The notes under the pieces are model-generated. The model was not told where the DNA came from. It saw only the letters and a list, made by a program, of their open reading frames with translations, and did not search any database. A stretch of 64,000 nt of DNA. Source: Nautiliales bacterium. GTDB lineage: Bacteria > Campylobacterota > Campylobacteria > Campylobacterales > JAADDX01. The stretch spans positions 4,070 through 68,069 of the forward strand of contig JAUUDM010000016.1 in the NCBI GenBank assembly GCA_030826765.1, written 5' to 3'. Shown here piece by piece: positions 1,991 through 61,913 of this stretch. The first letter of the stretch is position 1. Every line of letters starts with the position of its first letter. Position numbers and translations under genes: made by a program.

Positions 1991-4117
1991 ATGCAACCAT
2001 TAAAGATTTTTAATATTAAAAGAGCAATTAGTAAAGTTAAATATACTAGTGAAGGCCGTTTGGTAGTAATTGATGAAGAAAATACAATTAGGATATTTGA
2101 CTTAAATGAAATGAAGCTTGATGGGGGATTTAAGATAAAATTACCTAAAAATAGAATATTTGCAAATAGTGTTGATATTAGTCAAGATGGTGAACATTTA
2201 ATATTTACAGTTCCTAAAACCAATAAAGCAGTGTTATGGAAAACAAGTACAAAAAAACCAAGTGCAAATCTTGGATGGCATAAAGGTGAGATTGAATCTG
2301 TTGCTTTTGATATACAAAATAAATATGTAGCAACTGGTGGAACAGATGGAAGAGCATATATTTGGAATATAAAAACAGGTAAAATGGTTGGAAGTTTAGC
2401 CCCACATGCTGATTATGTAACAGCTATAGCTTTTAGTAAAAATGGTTATTGGTGTGCTACTGGAAGTTATGATAAGGCTATTTCTATTACAAATATTTCT
2501 TCTATGCAATTTGCTTATAAAATAAGAGCTCATTCCACTATGGTTACTAAAATTAAATTTTTAAATAATTTTAAAATGGTAAGTGGAGATAAAGAAGGAA
2601 ATATAATTGTAAGTGATTATTCTAAAGGTAGAGTATTAAAAAGAGTTCCAAAGCTTCCTGATATAGCGTTAGATTTCACATTTAATACAGATGAAAAATA
2701 TATGTTTGCTACTACGAAAAATAAAAATATATTTTTATTTGATATGGAAAAGTATGATTTAATTACAGATAAATTTATAAATGTAACATCAACTATAACT
2801 TCTATTGATTTTGTACCTGAGATGATGTATTTAATTGTTGGGACAGTTGATGGAATTTTATATATTTATGATATTTTATCAGATGAAAAAAAGCTTAAAC
2901 ACTATATTGAAGAAAAAAAATATGCTGAGGCTTATGATTTGATAGAAGAAAATCCATTACTTAAGAATTCTACATTTTATTCTAGATTGGAACAAATTTG
3001 GGAAAATATAGTATCTAAAGCTCACACATTTTTAGAGCAAGGTCAAAAAGATGTAGCAAATCAAATTTTAAAACCGTTTATGTCTATTCCTTCAAAAAGA
3101 ATGTTTATTCAACAATTACTTAAAGATTTTGCCGAATTTGATAAATTTAAACTATTAGTTACTAAAAAGAAATATCCGCTTGCTTATTCACTTGCAAATA
3201 AATATTCCTCATTTAAAGATACAAAATATTATAAACATATGGAAAATGAATGGAAAAAAGCTTTTAATATGGCTAGACAACTTATTTTTGAAAAAAATAA
3301 AGAAGATTATGTAAAACAGTTATTGATGCCTTTTAGAGGAGTTTCCGAAAAAACTCCTCTTATACAATCTCTATTTAATGAAAAAGAGATTTACCAAATG
3401 TTAAAACAAAAATTATCGAAAAAAGATTTTAAAGGTTTTTTTGAACTAACAAATAGATTTCCATTTTTAGCAGATTTAGATGAATATAAAGAAGCTCTAA
3501 AATTTGGAGAGAAACTTTTAAAAGCTGCTAATAACTATATTCAAAGTGGGGATTATTCTAAGGTTTTACAATATGTAAATATGCTAAGAGATTTTCCTAT
3601 GTATCAAAAAGATGCTGAAGAAATTTTAAATAAAGCAAATGTTTTAGTGAATTTTATGAAGTATATGGCGAATAAAGAGTATGATAAAGTTTATGAATAT
3701 GTAAAAAAAGAGCCTTTTTTAGAAAATGTAGAAGATTTTAAACATTTAGAAGATGAATGGCAAAAAAGAGTAGAAATAGCTGAAGAGTATAGTGCAAAAG
3801 GTGATGTAACTCATATAATTGATATTTTAAAAAATTATATGAAAATAAAAGAAAAACTTCCTAAAATAGGAGAACTTATAAAAACTGCTTATTTATATCA
3901 AATATTAGAAAAATTAAAAAGTGAAAATTTAGATAATGAAACAGTTCAACAAGCTTTTAATAGGTATATTAAACTATTTGGGCTTGATCCTGAAATAGGT
4001 GATATAATAGAGTTTGCTAAGAAAGCAGGATATAAATTAGATTTTTCTAATATACAAGAAGGTGATAATTTTAGTTGGTGGTATGAAGGTAATTTACCAG
4101 CAAATATATTTGCTTGA
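1991..4117 (+). CDS. WD40 beta-propeller (N-terminal ~300 aa) fused to an all-helical TPR-like C-terminal region; function unknown
   Basis: 708-aa ORF. WD-type repeats include GWHKGEIESVAFDIQNKYVATGGTDGRAYIWNI and HADYVTAIAFSKNGYWCATGSYDKAISI. The C-terminal half is repetitive K/E/Y/A-rich helix. Divergent from polA across a 43-bp spacer. Confidence 0.7.
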   Translation: MQPLKIFNIKRAISKVKYTSEGRLVVIDEENTIRIFDLNEMKLDGGFKIKLPKNRIFANSVDISQDGEHLIFTVPKTNKAVLWKTSTKKPSANLGWHKGEIESVAFDIQNKYVATGGTDGRAYIWNIKTGKMVGSLAPHADYVTAIAFSKNGYWCATGSYDKAISITNISSMQFAYKIRAHSTMVTKIKFLNNFKMVSGDKEGNIIVSDYSKGRVLKRVPKLPDIALDFTFNTDEKYMFATTKNKNIFLFDMEKYDLITDKFINVTSTITSIDFVPEMMYLIVGTVDGILYIYDILSDEKKLKHYIEEKKYAEAYDLIEENPLLKNSTFYSRLEQIWENIVSKAHTFLEQGQKDVANQILKPFMSIPSKRMFIQQLLKDFAEFDKFKLLVTKKKYPLAYSLANKYSSFKDTKYYKHMENEWKKAFNMARQLIFEKNKEDYVKQLLMPFRGVSEKTPLIQSLFNEKEIYQMLKQKLSKKDFKGFFELTNRFPFLADLDEYKEALKFGEKLLKAANNYIQSGDYSKVLQYVNMLRDFPMYQKDAEEILNKANVLVNFMKYMANKEYDKVYEYVKKEPFLENVEDFKHLEDEWQKRVEIAEEYSAKGDVTHIIDILKNYMKIKEKLPKIGELIKTAYLYQILEKLKSENLDNETVQQAFNRYIKLFGLDPEIGDIIEFAKKAGYKLDFSNIQEGDNFSWWYEGNLPANIFA

Positions 4118-4142
4118 CAATGGAAAAAAATTATTATATAAT
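4114..4142 (+). promoter_or_regulatory. Sigma70-type promoter, exact TTGACA-N17-TATAAT
   Basis: TTGACA at 4114-4119 (overlaps the TGA stop of the WD40 gene), a 17-nt spacer, then TATAAT at 4137-4142. The predicted transcription start near 4149 lies just upstream of the leader RBS. Confidence 0.6.
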
Positions 4143-4165
4143 AATTCTTAAAAAAGGAGTAAATA

Positions 4166-4231
4166 ATGGCTAATCATAATAATAAACATTTCCCATTTTT
4201 AGCTTATTCACTCCTTCTCCTTTGCTTCTAA
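4166..4231 (+). CDS. Candidate leu leader peptide, 21 aa (MANHNNKHFPFLAYSLLLLCF)
   Basis: AAGGAG at 4154-4159 sits 6 nt before the ATG at 4166. Four consecutive Leu codons CTC CTT CTC CTT occupy 4211-4222. The stop is at 4229-4231, 64 nt upstream of the leuA ATG. Too short to appear in the ORF track. Confidence 0.45.
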   Translation: MANHNNKHFPFLAYSLLLLCF

Positions 4232-4295
4232 TAAATAAATTTTAATAAAATTAGATATAATCACACTATAAAAATGTAATTTAAGGATAAATAAA

Positions 4296-5849
4296 ATGAA
4301 TACAATTAAAATATTTGATACAACTTTAAGAGATGGAGAACAGAGTCCAGGTTGTTCGATGACTATTGATGAAAAAATAAAAGTAGCATCTCAACTTGAT
4401 AAATTGGGAGTTGATATTATTGAAGCTGGTTTTGCAGCAGCCTCTCCAGGGGATTTTGATGCAATTTCTAAAATAAGTGAAGTTGTGAAAAACTCAACTG
4501 TATGTTCATTAGCAAGAGCTTTGGATAATGATATAAAAAGAGCAGGAGAAGCAGTATCAAAAGCAAATCATAAAAGAATTCATACTTTTATAGCAACAAG
4601 TCCAATTCATATGGAATATAAATTAAAAATGAAGCCTGATGAGGTTATAAGAAGAGCTGTAAAAGCAGTAGAATATGCAAAAACATTTGTAGAAGATGTG
4701 GAGTTTAGTTGTGAAGATGCTGGAAGAAGTGAAATGCCATTTCTAAAAGAGATTATTTCAGCAGTTATTGAAGCAGGGGCTGGGACTATTAATATTCCTG
4801 ATACTGTTGGTTATACAATGCCTTGGGAATTTGGAGCTCAAATCAAAGAATTAGTTGATTTTGTAGAAAATAAAGCAATTATTTCAGTTCATTGTCATAA
4901 TGATTTAGGACTTGCTACAGCAAACTCTATTCAAGCTGTTAAAAATGGAGCAAGACAAGTAGAATGTACAATTAATGGAATAGGAGAAAGAGCAGGAAAT
5001 GCTGCACTTGAAGAAGTGGTAATGATAATGAAAACAAGAAAAGATATTTTTAGTGATGTTAAAACAAATATCAATACAAAAGAGATTTATAAAACAAGTC
5101 GCTTAATTACTTCAATTACAGGAATTGAACCGCAACCAAATAAAGCAATTGTTGGTAAAAATGCATTTGCTCACGAAAGTGGAATTCATCAAGATGGTGT
5201 ACTTAAACATAGAGATACTTATGAAATTATGAGTGCAGAGGATATTGGACTTGAAAAAAATAATTCAATTGTATTAGGAAAACATTCAGGAAGACACGCA
5301 TTTAATGATAAACTAAAAGAGCTTGGATATGAATTAAGTGAAGTTGAGTTAAATAAAGCATTTGAAAGATTTAAAATTTTAGCAGATAAGAAAAAAGAGA
5401 TTTTTGATGAAGATATTATTGCAATTATAAATGATGAAATGATAAATGATAATAAAATGTATGAATTAATTTCTCTTCAATTAAATGATTGTTCAAATGG
5501 GCTTGCAAGTGCGGCAGCGAGTGTGAAATTTGAAGACGAAATTTTAACTGACGCTGCTATTGGAGAAGGAACAATTGATGCGGTATTTAAAGTGATTGAC
5601 AGAATTACAGGTTATTCAGGAGAATTAATTAGTTATAAAGTTGATTCTGTTACCCAAGGTAAAGATGCCTTAGCAAAAGTTACTGTAAAAGTTATTTTTG
5701 ATGAAAGTAAGCCGGCGATTTTAGGACATGGATTAAATATAGATACAATGACAGCAAGTGCAAGAGCGTATTTAAATGCTTTAAATAGTTTTTTAGTATC
5801 AAAAGATTTGCTTACAAATTGTAAAGTTTCATATAAAGATAAAATATAA
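4296..5849 (+). CDS. leuA: 2-isopropylmalate synthase
   Basis: 517 aa. N-terminus [19 protein letters not shown], catalytic region [15 protein letters not shown], and a C-terminal LeuA dimerisation/regulatory domain. Confidence 0.95.
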
Positions 5850-6646
5850 TGCTTCCAGCAAAAACAAGAATGCTTCAAAAAGCAACTGTTTTTAATAAAC
5901 ATACAATTAATGAAAATTTTGAGAAAATGACAAAAGATAAGTCATTTATCTCAAAACTTCCTACAAAAAGAGAAAATCTGTTTTTTAGAAATTATAATGA
6001 TTATTTGATTTCACTTATGGATGATGAGGTTGAAGATTTTAGATATATGAGTATGCAAAAAGCTTTTAGCTCAAAATATATTCTTGAAGTTTTTAAAAAA
6101 GATTATGAATCACTGCCTGAAAGTAAAAAAGCAAGAAAAATTGTTGTTTTTGATACAGAAACTACTGATATTCTAGGTTATATTATTTCATATGCGATGG
6201 TTGAATATGATATGATAGAAAAAAAGATAACAAAAGAAATTCACGAATTTATAAACCCCGAGGCAAAAATAAATCCAGAAGCGTATGCTGTTCATAAAAT
6301 AAGTGCCGAAGATGTAAAAGATAAACCGACTTTTAGAGAAAAAAGAGATGAAATATTAGAAACATTAATGGGTGCAGATATGGTAGTTGGACATAATGTT
6401 TTGTTTGATTTTGGTATTTTAAAAAGAGAACTTGAAAGAGATAAATATCATACAAATTATATAGATGTTCCTATTTTTGATACTATGTATTTCGCGGCTG
6501 ATGTGGTTGAGCTTGAAAAAAAGAAAATGCCAAGACTCGAAGAGTGTGTGAATTACTTTTTTGGTCATCAAAATGCTGGATATCACGATGCTTTAGAAGA
6601 TGTAAAAATGACACTTAAAGTTTATGAAAAGTTAGTTTTTGGGTAA
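5849..6646 (+). CDS. DEDDh-family 3'-5' exonuclease (DnaQ/epsilon-like domain) with a ~95-aa N-terminal extension; start codon uncertain
   Basis: Exo motifs VVFDTETTD, VVGHNVLFDFGIL and GYHDALEDV. The ATG overlaps the leuA stop (TAATG). Confidence 0.8.
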   Translation: MLPAKTRMLQKATVFNKHTINENFEKMTKDKSFISKLPTKRENLFFRNYNDYLISLMDDEVEDFRYMSMQKAFSSKYILEVFKKDYESLPESKKARKIVVFDTETTDILGYIISYAMVEYDMIEKKITKEIHEFINPEAKINPEAYAVHKISAEDVKDKPTFREKRDEILETLMGADMVVGHNVLFDFGILKRELERDKYHTNYIDVPIFDTMYFAADVVELEKKKMPRLEECVNYFFGHQNAGYHDALEDVKMTLKVYEKLVFG

Positions 6647-6895
6647 GAATTTATTAAAAAGACAATACTTATACCAAAACTAATAAAAATAGTGTATAAT
6701 TTAATTGTGAGAAGGAACAAATTAAATCTATTGTCTTTTATCCTTATATTAAAAAGGCTTTTAGTGTAGAATAATTATATTGGAATGGGTATAAGTAATA
6801 AATTTTATTTATTAATTGAATATATATTTAATTTATGTGTTATAACTCTCCTATACAGTTTTAATATATAATCATCTGGTTAATAAGGTGTTGTT

Positions 6896-9800
6896 ATGAA
6901 TTTTAAGAAATTAAGTTTAAAGTATTTTATAATCTTTATTTTTGTGAATATATTTTTAGTTACTCTTAGCGGATTATTTTTATTTAATCATATATTTAAA
7001 GAAGATACAACCTTCTATGTTAATGAAAAAATAAAAACAGTTGATTTTATTATTCATAAAGAAGCTTCTTTATTAAAAAAATTATCTGTTGACTGGGGAG
7101 AATGGGATGATGCATATAATTTTGTAAATGATAAAAATAAAGAATTTATTAATAACAATTTTGGTGGTAATACTACTTTGATAGATCTTGGAATTAAAGA
7201 AATAATTTTTTTGGATAAAAATTTAAATCTTGTATATGGCAGGATTGTTGATAAAAATAAAGAAAAAGAGATAAAAAAACTGCCTCCTTTTGATTATTCA
7301 AAAAACGGCTTTAATATTTATTTTTTAAATCATAAACTTTATTTGGTTTATATACACGATATTACAAATACAAAAAAAAATAAAAAAAATGGAAAGATAG
7401 TTGTTTTTAAATATTTAAATAAAAAATGTTTTGAAAAAAACGGTTTTCAAATATTAAAAATAACCTGCAAACATTATAACACTCTTTATAAAATTAAAGA
7501 AAATTCGCTTATTATTTACTATCCATTAGATAAGGAAATCACATTAAAAATAGCTGTTGATTTTAGTAAAGTTGTACATTTAATAAATGAATTCTTTTTA
7601 CATTTCATTTTATTGATTATTATCACTTATATCATACTGTTTGTATTAGGAATATATTTTGTAAATAAAATTACCGAAGATATCGAATTTATATTTAATA
7701 TCCTATCAAAAGGTATTAAAGATTCAAAAGCATTGGAAGCTTTAAAAAATTATAAATTTAATATATCAGAGTTTGAGTTAATCAACACTCTTTTTGAAAA
7801 ACTTTATGAAAAACTTTATGATTTTGAGCAGATTTATAACATTTTAGATCAAGATGCCCCTTTTGGTGTTTTGATATACAATAAAAACATTTTATATGGA
7901 AATAAATTTTTTTTAAATCTGTTTAGTTTAAACAAAGAAGAGTTAAAAAATTTAGACCCTCTGGTATTTTTTAAAGATAAATCATTAAAAGAAAAAATTG
8001 CCGAAATTAACAGAAAAATATTAAACGGCGAAAAGATAATTTTCAAATATTCTACAGAAATTTTTTATAAAAATAAAAATATTTACGTTTTTATGGTCTC
8101 TTTTCCGGTAATTTATAACAATAACAAGGCTATAATGACATTTGCTATAGATTTGACTAAACAGATGGAATATCAGGAAATTATAAACAGAATTTTAAAT
8201 TCCATACCTGTTATTGTATTTGAACACAGTAAAAACGGTGAAAATAATATTACAATTTCTGAAAACATTGAAAAAATACTTGGGTTTAAAGTTAATGAAA
8301 TAGATGAAAACTGGTGGGTTTTGCATTTGCATCCAAAAGATAAAGAGAGGATTTTGAATGAACAAGACGAATTGAAAATCAAAGGAAAGTTAAATCATAT
8401 TTACAGACTAAGAAAAAAAGACGGTTCTTATATATGGGTTAATGAGTATGTTTTTTATAAAAAAGAAAATAAAGAAAAAATTTACGGTTTAGTAGAAGAT
8501 CTTACAGAAGAAGAAATTATTAAAAAGTTAAACGCTTCTTTATCTGAAATAAATCAGTTTTTAATTAAAGCCGGCAATAAAAAAAGTATTATAGATTATA
8601 TTTGCAAAAAAATGATTGAAAGCGAAGTTTTTAAATTTGCTTGGATTGGAAAAGTAAAAGATAATAAAGTTATACCGTTAAAACATTTTGGTGAAGGAAA
8701 AGAGTATTTAGATGATTTAGTGATTGAGATTAGTGATGGAGTTTTATCAAAAGGTCCTACGGGTGAAGTTTTATATAATTCTAATATTATAGGAATAAAT
8801 TCTAATACTTTTACTAACGAAAAAATTTCGCCGTGGAGGGAAAAACAGATAAAAAGCGGATTTTTTTCATCTATTGCTGTGAGGTTAATTGATGATTTAA
8901 CTATTAATTTATATTCTGAATTTACAGACTTTTATACTCAAGAAGTTTTGAATATTATTTCATCTATCAGGTCTTCTTTTATGATGGCGTGTGAAAAAAA
9001 CAAATATATTGAAAAACTTCAATATTTAACTTTTTATGATGAAATAACAAATCTTGGAAATTTAAATAAATTTAAAAAAGATTTTAATGAATATCATGAT
9101 AAATATATTTTATGTATGATAAATATAAAAGATTTTACTTCAATTAATTCTAATTTCGGTTTTGAGTTTGGAAATAAAGTATTAAAAAAAGTTGCGGAAG
9201 AGTTAAAAAAACATCTTAAAAAAGAGGATGAAGTTTATAGAATGTATGATGACAGGTTTTTACTTTTTTTTAAAACCGATATATGGAATTTTGACATCAT
9301 ACACAATCTAACGCAAAGAATTTCTGATATTTTTTCAGAAGAAGGCTTATTAATTGATAATAATACAATTTTTTTGGAAATAAACGGAAGCATAATTAGT
9401 TCAAAAGATATAGAAAAAGAAAAAGCTCTTGAGGGACTTATTTATGCTTATGTTTTTGTAAAAAAAGTTGTTAATAAATGTGTAATATATCAACCTTGGA
9501 TGTATGAAGAGGTAAAAGAGAGAATATATTTAAAAGAGCTTTTGTTTAGAGCAATAAGGGAGAAACTTTTTGATGTTTATTTTCAGCCTATTGTTGATAT
9601 TAATTCATATAAAGTGGTGCAGTTTGAGGCATTACTAAGATTAAAAGACAAAAATAAATTTGTAAATATGGAGAAGTTTATAAATATAGCAAATGAACTT
9701 CAGTTAGTCCCTGAAATTACAAAAATTGTAGTTGAAAAAGTTACAAAATATTTAAAAACATGTAAGAATGTCGTAGTATCTGTTAATATATCAAAAATTG

Positions 9801-11519: not shown

Positions 11520-11548
11520 TTGACATATTTTATAAAAATTGATATAAT
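11520..11548 (+). promoter_or_regulatory. Sigma70-type promoter, exact TTGACA-N17-TATAAT, for the hsp20 gene
   Basis: TTGACA at 11520-11525, a 17-nt spacer, TATAAT at 11543-11548. It lies ~45 nt upstream of the RBS-supported ATG at 11595. Confidence 0.6.
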
Positions 11549-11594
11549 TTTAGTACAAAATAACAAAATATCATATGTAATAAAGGAGGAAAAA

Positions 11595-12017
11595 ATGTGG
11601 CCAACAGTATTTGATCCTTTTAAAGAATTACAAGATATAGAAAGAAGATTAGGAGCAGTTCTTCATACAAATAAACCTGTTCAAAAAGTAGAAACTTTTA
11701 CACCTGCAGTTAATGAAAAAGTAGAGGAAAAAGGGTATCATTTAGAAATAGATTTACCTGGAGTAAAAAAAGAAGATATTGAAACAAGTGTAAATGATAA
11801 TATATTAACTATTTCAGGTGAAAGAAAACTTGAACAACAAGAAGAAAAAGATAATTATACAAGAATTGAAAGTTTCTTTGGTAGATTTGAAAGAAGCTTT
11901 AAATTACCATCTGATGCGGATGTTGAAAATATTGAAGCTAAATTTGATGATGGTGTTTTAAAAATATTTATTCCTAAAAAACCTAAAGCTGCAGGTAAAA
12001 AAATAGAAATTAAATAA
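11595..12017 (+). CDS. Small heat-shock protein, Hsp20/alpha-crystallin family
   Basis: AAGGAGG at 11583-11589 precedes the ATG at 11595. Alpha-crystallin core: YHLEIDLPGVKKEDIETSVNDNILTISGER...FGRFERSFKLP...AKFDDGVLKIFIPK. The longer TTG start in the ORF track (11520) is the -35 box of the promoter. Confidence 0.9.
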   Translation: MWPTVFDPFKELQDIERRLGAVLHTNKPVQKVETFTPAVNEKVEEKGYHLEIDLPGVKKEDIETSVNDNILTISGERKLEQQEEKDNYTRIESFFGRFERSFKLPSDADVENIEAKFDDGVLKIFIPKKPKAAGKKIEIK

Positions 12018-12473: not shown

Positions 12474-12492
12474 CTAAGAGAAAAACTCTTAG
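12474..12492 (-). terminator. Short hairpin overlapping the peroxiredoxin stop codon (weak terminator or attenuator before the Fur-family gene)
   Basis: Minus strand reads CTAAGAG-TTTTT-CTCTTAG (7-bp stem). There is no strong trailing U-run. Confidence 0.3.
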
Positions 12493-13193
12493 TCAGCCAT
12501 AATTTCTTCGATAGTAATATAATCACCAACTCTACCAGTCATTTGTTCTACGTCAGTATTTACTGGTAATGTTTTTTTACCAGGTCTCCATCCTGCAGGA
12601 CAAACTTCACCAGTTTTATATGCATGTTGATGTGCTTTGATTTGTCTTACGAATTCTTTTACACTTCTTCCAACAGGTGGAGCTTGTACTTCTTGAGCTA
12701 CAATTACACCATCTGGGTTGATTAAGAATCTTCCTCTTAAAGCAATTCCAGCATCTTCGATTAATACACCAAATTTTCTACTTAATTCAGTTGTAGGGTC
12801 AGCTGCAATTGTAAGTTTTAAATCTTTTAATAATGGTTCAGTTTCAGCAAATCTTTTATGGCTGAATTTTGTATCAGTTGATACTGCTAATACTTCACAT
12901 CCAAGTTCACCTTTGATTACATCTAAACTTGCATTCATAGCTGCAATTTCAGTTGGACATACAAATGTGAAATCTGCTGGGTAAAAACAAATAACTGACC
13001 ATTTACCTTTAAAATCTTCACTTGATACTTCTGTATAGTGTCCTGTCTCTGCATTATAAGCTTCTGCTTTGAATTCTGGTATATTTTTAAGTACTAATAC
13101 TCCTGCTTGAGTTGCTTCCATTTTATTCTCCTTAGTTTCTGTTTTATTTTCTACTACTTCTTCAGTAGCTTTTACTTCTCTTTCACAAGCCAT
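12489..13193 (-). CDS. ahpC: Typical 2-Cys peroxiredoxin (AhpC/TSA family); alternative start at 13121
   Basis: Peroxidatic motif FYPADFTFVCPTE and resolving-Cys motif GEVCPAGW. Two in-frame ATGs each have an AAGGAG RBS: 13193 (MACEREVK...) and 13121 (MEATQAGV...). The start in the ORF track (13250) lies inside the promoter -35 box. Confidence 0.9.
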   Translation of the reverse strand: MACEREVKATEEVVENKTETKENKMEATQAGVLVLKNIPEFKAEAYNAETGHYTEVSSEDFKGKWSVICFYPADFTFVCPTEIAAMNASLDVIKGELGCEVLAVSTDTKFSHKRFAETEPLLKDLKLTIAADPTTELSRKFGVLIEDAGIALRGRFLINPDGVIVAQEVQAPPVGRSVKEFVRQIKAHQHAYKTGEVCPAGWRPGKKTLPVNTDVEQMTGRVGDYITIEEIMAD

Positions 13194-13221
13194 TTTAGCT
13201 CCTTTGTGATTTTGTAGTGGA

Positions 13222-13250
13222 ATTATAATTAAAAAATAAAAAAATGTCAA
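13222..13250 (-). promoter_or_regulatory. Sigma70-type promoter, exact TTGACA-N17-TATAAT, for the peroxiredoxin/Fur-family pair
   Basis: On the minus strand, TTGACA is at 13250-13245, followed by a 17-nt spacer and TATAAT at 13227-13222. Confidence 0.6.
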
Positions 13251-61773: not shown

Positions 61774-61913
61774 TGTAAGCCTTTTTTGTGTAATTATAGC
61801 AAAAAGATATAATTATGATAATTTAATTTATATTTTAAAATAAGAGTAAATTTATAAATTTATGTTATAATTAAACATATGTAGTTATAAAATAAATAAA
61901 GATATTCTATAAA

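Follow-up and report, generated by a model that had tools for sequence, protein, structure and literature searches.

A LeuL-type leader open reading frame with a predicted self-closing start site upstream of leuA in an AT-rich member of the Campylobacterota

The 64,000-nucleotide (nt) stretch of contig JAUUDM010000016.1 analyzed here, referred to below as the window, encodes a 2-isopropylmalate synthase gene (leuA) preceded by its own consensus promoter and by a 21-codon open reading frame (ORF) that carries four consecutive leucine codons close to its stop. A first-pass annotation of this DNA had described a perfect promoter and a Leu-run leader ORF ahead of leuA as a candidate leucine attenuator, and sequence features and conservation in relatives agree in supporting a leucine leader there that is served by a strong promoter. 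We conclude that the element is very probably a functional leucine-sensing leader of the LeuL family. The reading that we favor, with a probability of roughly 0.8, is that this LeuL-type, leucine-sensing ORF controls leuA; as the means we tentatively prefer stall-controlled, factor-dependent termination, possibly together with a second promoter. The leader is genuine but falls within a family that had already been described, and it is of interest mainly for its mechanism.

A LeuL-type leader upstream of leuA

The first-pass annotation was not aware of any leu leader in the Campylobacterota, but LeuL had been predicted there in 2013 (PMC3847290) and its translation in Campylobacter jejuni was confirmed in 2025 by Ribo-seq and start-site profiling (PMC11955535). 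In the earlier study, Porcelli et al. used dRNA-seq to map a transcription start upstream of a 28-aa ORF, LeuL, located before C. jejuni leuABCD; this was the only start detected, the ORF contains five rare Leu codons, the RNA was reported to end shortly after its stop codon, and attenuation by the leader peptide was proposed (PMC3847290). The same authors listed LeuL-like ORFs for most epsilonproteobacterial genomes with leu genes, including Sulfurovum (…SLLLLLAF) and C. concisus, and gave 'none' for both Nautiliales genomes, Caminibacter and Nautilia (PMC3847290).

All the parts that the first-pass annotation had listed, namely a promoter, a leader ribosome-binding site (RBS), an ORF, a spacer and a leuA RBS, were located in the sequence (Table 1), with 64 nt separating the leader stop from the leuA ATG. 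Promoter P1 is the sole 12/12 consensus match within positions 3000-7000, and transcription from it is predicted to start at ~4149; its -35 hexamer overlaps the TGA stop (4115-4117) of an upstream WD40-repeat gene. The 64-kb window holds three perfect TTGACA-N16-18-TATAAT promoters, compared with 0.19 in shuffled sequence, suggesting that the organism uses such promoters and that P1 is strong. The leuA product contains the Pfam domains HMGL-like (E value 9e-100), HCS_D2 and LeuA_dimer, and its closest relatives all belong to the Campylobacterota. A scan of the window for tRNA genes returned none.

Table 1. Features of the leader and leuA region (positions in the window)
Feature	Position	Strand	Details
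Promoter P1	TTGACA 4114-4119, 17-nt spacer, TATAAT 4137-4142	+	12/12 consensus match
Leader Shine-Dalgarno, AAGGAG	4154-4159	+	6 nt before ATG; invariant in five-sequence alignment
Leader hairpin, 5' arm	4154-4173	+	RBS, AUG, codons 2-3
Leader ORF, LeuL-type	4166-4231	+	ATG at 4166; 21 codons plus stop; MANHNNKHFPFLAYSLLLLCF
C-rich, G-poor rut-like tract	4175-4252 (78 nt)	+	15 C, 2 G; leader 3' half to spacer start
Leader hairpin, 3' arm	4199-4216	+	codons 12-17 (LAYSLL), including the first two Leu-run codons
Leu run, CTC CTT CTC CTT	4211-4222	+	ends two codons before stop; presumed stall site
Invariant block, TTAGATATAATCACA	4251-4265	+	contains -10-like TATAAT 4256-4261; identical in five window-clade sequences
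leuA Shine-Dalgarno, AAGGA	4283-4287	+	8 nt before ATG; TTTAAGGATAA conserved in relatives
leuA, 2-isopropylmalate synthase	4296-5849	+	517 aa; regulated gene

In enterobacterial leuL, four consecutive Leu codons sense charged tRNA-Leu via ribosome stalling. The Leu run of the window leader is the presumed site of such a stall under leucine limitation, and stalling there is the likely signal that the leader emits. Counting Leu codons over 39 long window ORFs (n = 1467) bore out the preference for TTA that had been noted by eye in neighboring genes, with TTA at 56%, CTT at 26% and CTC at 0.7% (11/1467). The Leu run thus contains two copies of CTC, the rarest Leu codon of the genome, and two of CTT, which is not rare. 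Across the family, rare codons are concentrated in the tails of the leaders, where CTC makes up 36% of Leu codons (4% in the adjacent leuA genes) and CTG makes up 25% (2% in the adjacent leuA genes).

The window ORF shows the features that define LeuL and therefore belongs to an already described family. It is a short ORF with an RBS directly upstream of leuA (21 codons, against 20-35 aa in the paper), several leucines stand at its C-terminus (LLLL), the RBS lies at a proper distance from the start (AAGGAG, 6 nt, ATG) and a promoter of its own, here a consensus promoter recognized from sequence, precedes it. In rarity its Leu codons are mixed, with two rare CTC and two common CTT. The locus differs from other LeuL loci in its spacer, which measures only 64 nt and holds no hairpin, in the perfect -35 hexamer of P1, in the invariant -10-like block between leader and leuA, and in the exonuclease gene, rather than leuBCD, that follows leuA. 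It also differs in taxonomic placement, since the published survey gave no leader for Nautiliales and the nearest genome-level LeuA relative of the window is labeled Nautiliales.

Conservation of the leader was assessed on 160 leuA loci fetched from genomes and metagenomes, a sample that does not include the C. jejuni leuL sequence, and candidate leaders were required to have an RBS, 10-45 codons and a C-terminal Leu run and to lie upstream of leuA. Such ORFs were found at 91 of 123 Campylobacterota loci and at 0 of 21 outgroup loci (LeuA 54-58% identical; titled records include Aquificota and Nitrospirae). The leaders comprise 77 distinct peptides of 19-40 aa, in 44 of which exactly two codons stand between the Leu run and the stop; this modal geometry is also that of the window leader. 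In the four closest relatives (L081-L084; LeuA 89-90% identical) the frame and the Leu run are both kept, as the first-pass annotation had suggested checking, and so are TTGACA, a TATACT box and the RBS, while most of the spacer has diverged. The orthologous ORFs read MAN[DHG]N[HQY]K[KN]FP[HY]ISYSLLL[CS]L, with CTT CTA CTC as Leu-run codons. TTGACA and a TATA(A/C)T box are kept in Sulfurovum-type loci as well, and the C-terminus of the window leader, SLLLLCF, resembles that of Sulfurovum leaders (…SLLLLLAF, …SLLLLCL).

These observations bear on the possibility that the ORF arose by chance, or that its product is a small hydrophobic peptide that acts independently of leuA. The shortness of the ORF, the AT-rich genome and the hydrophobic C-terminus would all fit such an explanation; the position of the ORF upstream of leuA, however, recurs across genera and not in the outgroup, and the rare Leu codons, the conserved RBS and frame and the dedicated consensus promoter further argue against it. 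We regard this explanation as highly implausible.

In a sister subfamily of LeuL leaders, the residues immediately before the Leu run form a conserved motif, K-x-L-P-K-I-E-I-K-N (loci L003, L006, L007, L014, L018, L020, L025, L031, L036, L049-L055, L065, L070, L100, L108 and L137). The titled records of this subfamily include Campylobacter concisus and various Campylobacterales and Campylobacteraceae metagenome-assembled genomes (MAGs), and in the table of Porcelli et al. the subfamily also covers C. curvus, Sulfurospirillum and Nitratiruptor (PMC3847290). The motif occurs in 18 distinct nucleotide versions (Pro as CCC, CCA or CCT; Ile as ATA, ATT or ATC; Glu as GAA or GAG; Leu as TTA, TTG or CTT), and its retention through many synonymous changes points to selection on the peptide itself. 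This suggests that the nascent chain of the sister-subfamily leaders may take part in stalling. In the window clade, the Phe-Pro pair at codons 9-10 is likewise kept through synonymous changes.

Base pairing of the leader RNA

The first-pass annotation had described the Leu-codon stretch as an anti-Shine-Dalgarno sequence complementary over 7 bp to the leader RBS. The pairing proved stronger than this. Both the minimum free energy (MFE) and the centroid structures of the leader RNA (4149-4231) consist of a single hairpin of -14.3 kcal/mol (z = -3.84; 0 of 200 shuffles equal), in which 17 bp are arranged in three blocks (4154-4160/4210-4216, 4162-4165/4205-4208 and 4168-4173/4199-4204). The four closest relatives form the same hairpin, with z between -3.6 and -4.8, and comparison with the window reveals one compensatory pair (U-A to C-G) and one A·C mismatch restored to G-C.

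For tests across the family we used 42 representatives at least 30% different from one another. The duplex between the leader RBS and the 3' coding end of the same leader averages -11.5 kcal/mol, compared with -9.7 ± 0.3 kcal/mol for permuted partners, and 0 of 20000 partner permutations match the observed mean; in 60% of the representatives the duplex lies more than two standard deviations below composition shuffles. The pairing is thus conserved and shows lineage-specific co-adaptation, and closure of the leader RBS is the best-supported RNA feature of the LeuL family. When a ribosome was modeled as masking the Leu codons, the unpaired probability of the leader RBS rose from 0.29 to ~0.6 in the window and from 0.33 to 0.46 in the family (P ~ 1e-6). 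In these models, the conserved computable consequence of a stall is the opening of the leader's own start site.

In E. coli, the RBS of the trp leader is sequestered by a more distal segment of the leader transcript, which limits leader translation to early rounds. The window leader differs in that its distal segment is the regulatory codon run itself.

The Leu run had also been proposed to pair over 5 bp with the leuA RBS, which raises the possibility of translational attenuation, whereby the second CUCCUU (4217-4222) would mask the leuA RBS (4283-4287) and a stalled ribosome would unmask it. As in the ermC and cat systems, a stalled leader ribosome would then remodel the pairing of an RBS, and the window does carry an anti-Shine-Dalgarno sequence that lies inside the ribosome footprint and can pair with the downstream RBS. 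The 5-bp helix is present in the window MFE structure, and the modeled probability that the leuA AAGGA is unpaired rises from 0.31 in ribosome-free RNA to 0.80 when a ribosome stalls on the Leu run. With a ribosome at the stop codon, however, the value is just as high (0.82), the helix spans a 60-nt loop with only 5 bp, and the 162-nt region taken as a whole has no unusual stability (z = -1.03). Neither the helix nor the unmasking extends to the four closest relatives, whose Leu runs contain no second CUCCUU and whose leuA AAGGA changes from free to stalled as 0.49 to 0.51, 0.70 to 0.71, 0.33 to 0.47 and 0.54 to 0.39, respectively. Family-wide, cognate duplexes between the leuA RBS and the leader end are slightly worse than permuted ones (-4.2 vs. 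-4.8 kcal/mol), and accessibility of the leuA start region is flat across the 42 representatives (0.57, 0.61 and 0.59). The proposed pairing can therefore be modeled for the window sequence alone, where it looks like a by-product of the CUC-CUU codons; unlike in ermC and cat, the conserved pairing is with the leader's own RBS, and we consider translational attenuation of leuA unlikely.

Termination and a candidate second promoter

In agreement with the first-pass annotation, which saw no terminator/antiterminator pair, a terminator scan of 3000-7000 identified no terminator-like site. A search for hairpins followed by U runs in the spacers of the 42 representatives, which began 6 nt before the leader stop and could thus miss hairpins starting deeper in the ORF, detected no such structure within the window clade, nor at any locus whose spacer measures up to 85 nt, C. 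concisus included. Rfam searches yielded no match for the whole window at gathering thresholds and, for 3900-4500 at E values up to 10, chance-level matches only, none of them to a Leu leader. Sulfurovum-type loci, with spacers of 100-135 nt, do carry a small hairpin that covaries (AGCC/GGCU, AGCG/CGCU, CACC/GGUG and others) and is succeeded by a run of four to six U, and a hairpin of this kind with its U run precedes leuA in 6 of the 42 representatives, all Sulfurovum-type. Modeling of 11 Sulfurovum-type loci that possess a terminator revealed no apparent antiterminator: the terminator hairpin forms with a probability of 0.81 in free RNA, 0.89 when a ribosome occupies the stop codon and 0.86 when it is stalled. 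No classical switch could be derived for these loci, as masking by the stalled ribosome does not lower the probability of the terminator hairpin.

These results leave little room for classical enterobacterial attenuation through a terminator hairpin and a mutually exclusive antiterminator. Like leuL of E. coli, the leader of the enterobacterial leu attenuator (Rfam Leu_leader), the window leader has four Leu codons in succession, and the covarying hairpins of the six Sulfurovum-type representatives would fit such a mechanism. The window differs from that attenuator, however, in having no terminator, no antiterminator and no covariance-model match, and no antiterminator could be modeled even in relatives that possess a terminator. 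Classical attenuation is, in our judgment, very improbable here.

Because no terminator hairpin was found, premature termination, if it takes place, is taken to be factor (Rho)-dependent. From the second half of the leader into the spacer, the window RNA is rich in C and poor in G (Table 1), and the same bias is seen in the family, where the interval from the Leu run to the leuA RBS contains 21% C and 7% G (C/G ~3), compared with a C/G ratio of ~1 upstream of P1 and 0.7 in leuA. On sequence grounds, this composition is that expected of a Rho loading site. Leader peptides that control Rho are a known class (reviewed in PMC12360218). The window leader ORF ends next to C-rich, G-poor, unstructured RNA that holds no intrinsic terminator, and a ribosome stalled near its stop would cover the C-rich stretch. 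These features are shared with tnaC-tnaAB, in which a leader peptide controls Rho-dependent termination through a stall caused by a nascent peptide bound to a small molecule. The window system would differ in that its stall would arise from a shortage of charged tRNA and that Rho has a role that we infer. Transmission of the leader signal through relief of Rho-type premature termination in the G-poor spacer is accordingly put forward tentatively, as a possibility that falls short of even odds.

The block at 4251-4265 is the only perfectly conserved intergenic block in the alignment of five sequences, and its flanks diverge. It resembles other promoters of the window, such as TTTGCTATAATTACAC at 61788-61803, in which TATAAT is followed by (T/C)ACA 25-35 nt before an ATG. 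Across 25 Sulfurovum-type loci, the homologous motif does not vary at TT..G.TA..AT, positions that, judging from the sequence, are those that matter for an extended -10 element, and G-N-TAnAAT occurs in 15 of the 42 representative spacers, all in the Sulfurovum-type subfamily, compared with 2.2 expected. A search of the window for a second copy of TTAGATATAATCACAC returned promoter-like near-matches only and no second regulated site. RNA pairing was tried as a cause of the conservation of the block and rejected, since UCUAAU, in the stop region, and AUUAGA, adjacent to the block, pair with only -2.3 to -3.6 kcal/mol in the window clade; in Sulfurovum-type loci the same pairing reaches -8.5 to -11.8 kcal/mol. 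The block is most simply read as a putative second promoter, P2, with a start at ~4265-4268, and the chances that P2 is active, likely as a parallel input to leuA, appear to us evenly balanced. Alternatively, it may be a sigma-dependent pause element, a role considered because a terminator follows the Sulfurovum-type motif at a fixed distance of 14 nt.

Since the TATAAT at 4256-4261 lies in the sole invariant block, a leuA transcript may start 3' of the leader ORF. This leads to a further alternative, in which leuA would be transcribed essentially from P2 and the P1-leader unit would exert little or no control here, being either a vestige of a Sulfurovum-type ancestor that lost its downstream hairpins or an add-on to it. 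The invariance of the block, its match to the promoter type usual in the window and to the usual distance from the ATG, and the lack in the window clade of the hairpin and terminator that follow the motif in Sulfurovum-type loci are all consistent with this scenario. Against it, P1, the leader RBS, the frame, the Leu run and the leader hairpin have been kept while spacers diverged freely, which argues for continued selection; a perfect-consensus P1 would in any case read through into leuA, and C. jejuni shows the LeuL start site alone. Transcription essentially from P2 thus seems improbable, and control by the leader from P1, possibly with P2 in parallel, continues to be the reading that we prefer.

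The spacers of Sulfurovum-type loci display an ordered set of three elements: a hairpin whose 3' arm is the -10-like GGTAAAATTAGA (-8.5 to -11.8 kcal/mol), then a U run, and lastly a small terminator hairpin that covaries and has a U tract, placed 14 nt downstream of the motif. This arrangement was observed in L004, L005, L008, L011, L029, L038, L041, L046, L058, L102 and others, and folding of these spacers predicts no antiterminator.

Proposed working, neighboring genes and significance

In the mechanism that we favor, the first ribosome would complete the leader and depart when Leu-tRNA is ample. The leader hairpin would then shut the leader start site. As a result, ~130 nt of RNA before leuA, unstructured, rich in C and poor in G, would go untranslated, and transcription from P1 would end prematurely in a Rho-dependent manner. 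When Leu-tRNA is scarce, a ribosome would stall on the Leu run, keep the hairpin open and cover the C-rich tract around the stop, so that RNA polymerase would reach leuA. The invariant block would probably add a leader-independent promoter for basal leuA expression, or a pause site. A broader and more speculative extension of this scheme, which we consider possible but doubtful, is that LeuL leaders of the Campylobacterota operate without any terminator/antiterminator switch: the Leu codons would double as an anti-Shine-Dalgarno sequence closing their own start, a stall would both reopen that start and mask a C-rich zone for factor loading, and the -10-like element would act as a sigma-dependent pause or as a bypass promoter.

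Several points weigh against the favored mechanism. The literature that we found holds no experiment showing leucine-dependent regulation by any LeuL, and the published mechanism is a proposal (PMC3847290). Base composition and the lack of a hairpin are what point to Rho; the CUN codons for Leu and the UCN codons for Ser by themselves account for some of the C-richness, and the leader hairpin would itself make some of the C-rich tract inaccessible to Rho. The Leu run contains two CTT among its four codons, and CTT is common in window genes; moreover, the window leuA has no leuBCD behind it. The influence of the leader may be small should leuA be transcribed mainly from P2. Finally, a leader is entirely missing from the nearest genome-level relative (L001, labeled as an uncultured Nautiliales MAG; LeuA 87% identical), where leuA starts ~20 nt after an upstream gene that by eye resembles thiG (L001 2900-3000; ~40% GC locally), suggesting that in this part of the tree either the leader was lost or leuA was relocated.

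Downstream of leuA, a gene for an RNase T/DnaQ-like exonuclease (5849-6646, + strand) begins with an ATG that overlaps the leuA stop (ATGA); co-transcription with leuA, if it occurs, would bring this gene under the leader as well. The upstream gene (1991-4117, + strand) encodes a 708-aa protein with an N-terminal WD40 beta-propeller, and no terminator was found between it and the leader. In three relatives, the region upstream of P1 contains instead a conserved non-coding block of ~100 nt (…TTGTAGATTATGGCACATAA…TGTAGTGCTATAAAGTAGTTAAGTAATTTTAGTCTAAAAT…TTTGTCAAGAT; L081 ~2670-2780, L083 ~250-360, L084 ~880-990), a place occupied in the window by the WD40 gene; the block has no Rfam match. Elsewhere in the window, further perfect TTGACA-N17-TATAAT promoters lie at 11520-11548 (+ strand), which either shortly precedes or overlaps the start annotated for an Hsp20-family gene (ORF 11520-12017), and at 13222-13250 (- strand), at the start of the minus-strand ORF 12489-13250. 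The mechanically assigned ORF starts at 11520 and 13250 are probably set too far upstream.

With the leader described here, the LeuL family now reaches an AT-rich lineage (26.6% GC) whose nearest genome-level LeuA relative is labeled Nautiliales, a group without a leader in the original survey. Because most members have no recognizable terminator, and what is conserved in the RNA is instead a leader start site that closes on itself, our results suggest that the accepted hairpin-based attenuation may not fit most LeuL members. No paper in the literature that we found tests the mechanism of LeuL, which now constitutes a well-defined question that is approachable in C. jejuni, where genetic tools exist. 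For genome annotation, ORFs of 20-30 codons upstream of leuA should be recorded as leader peptides and not as intergenic sequence.

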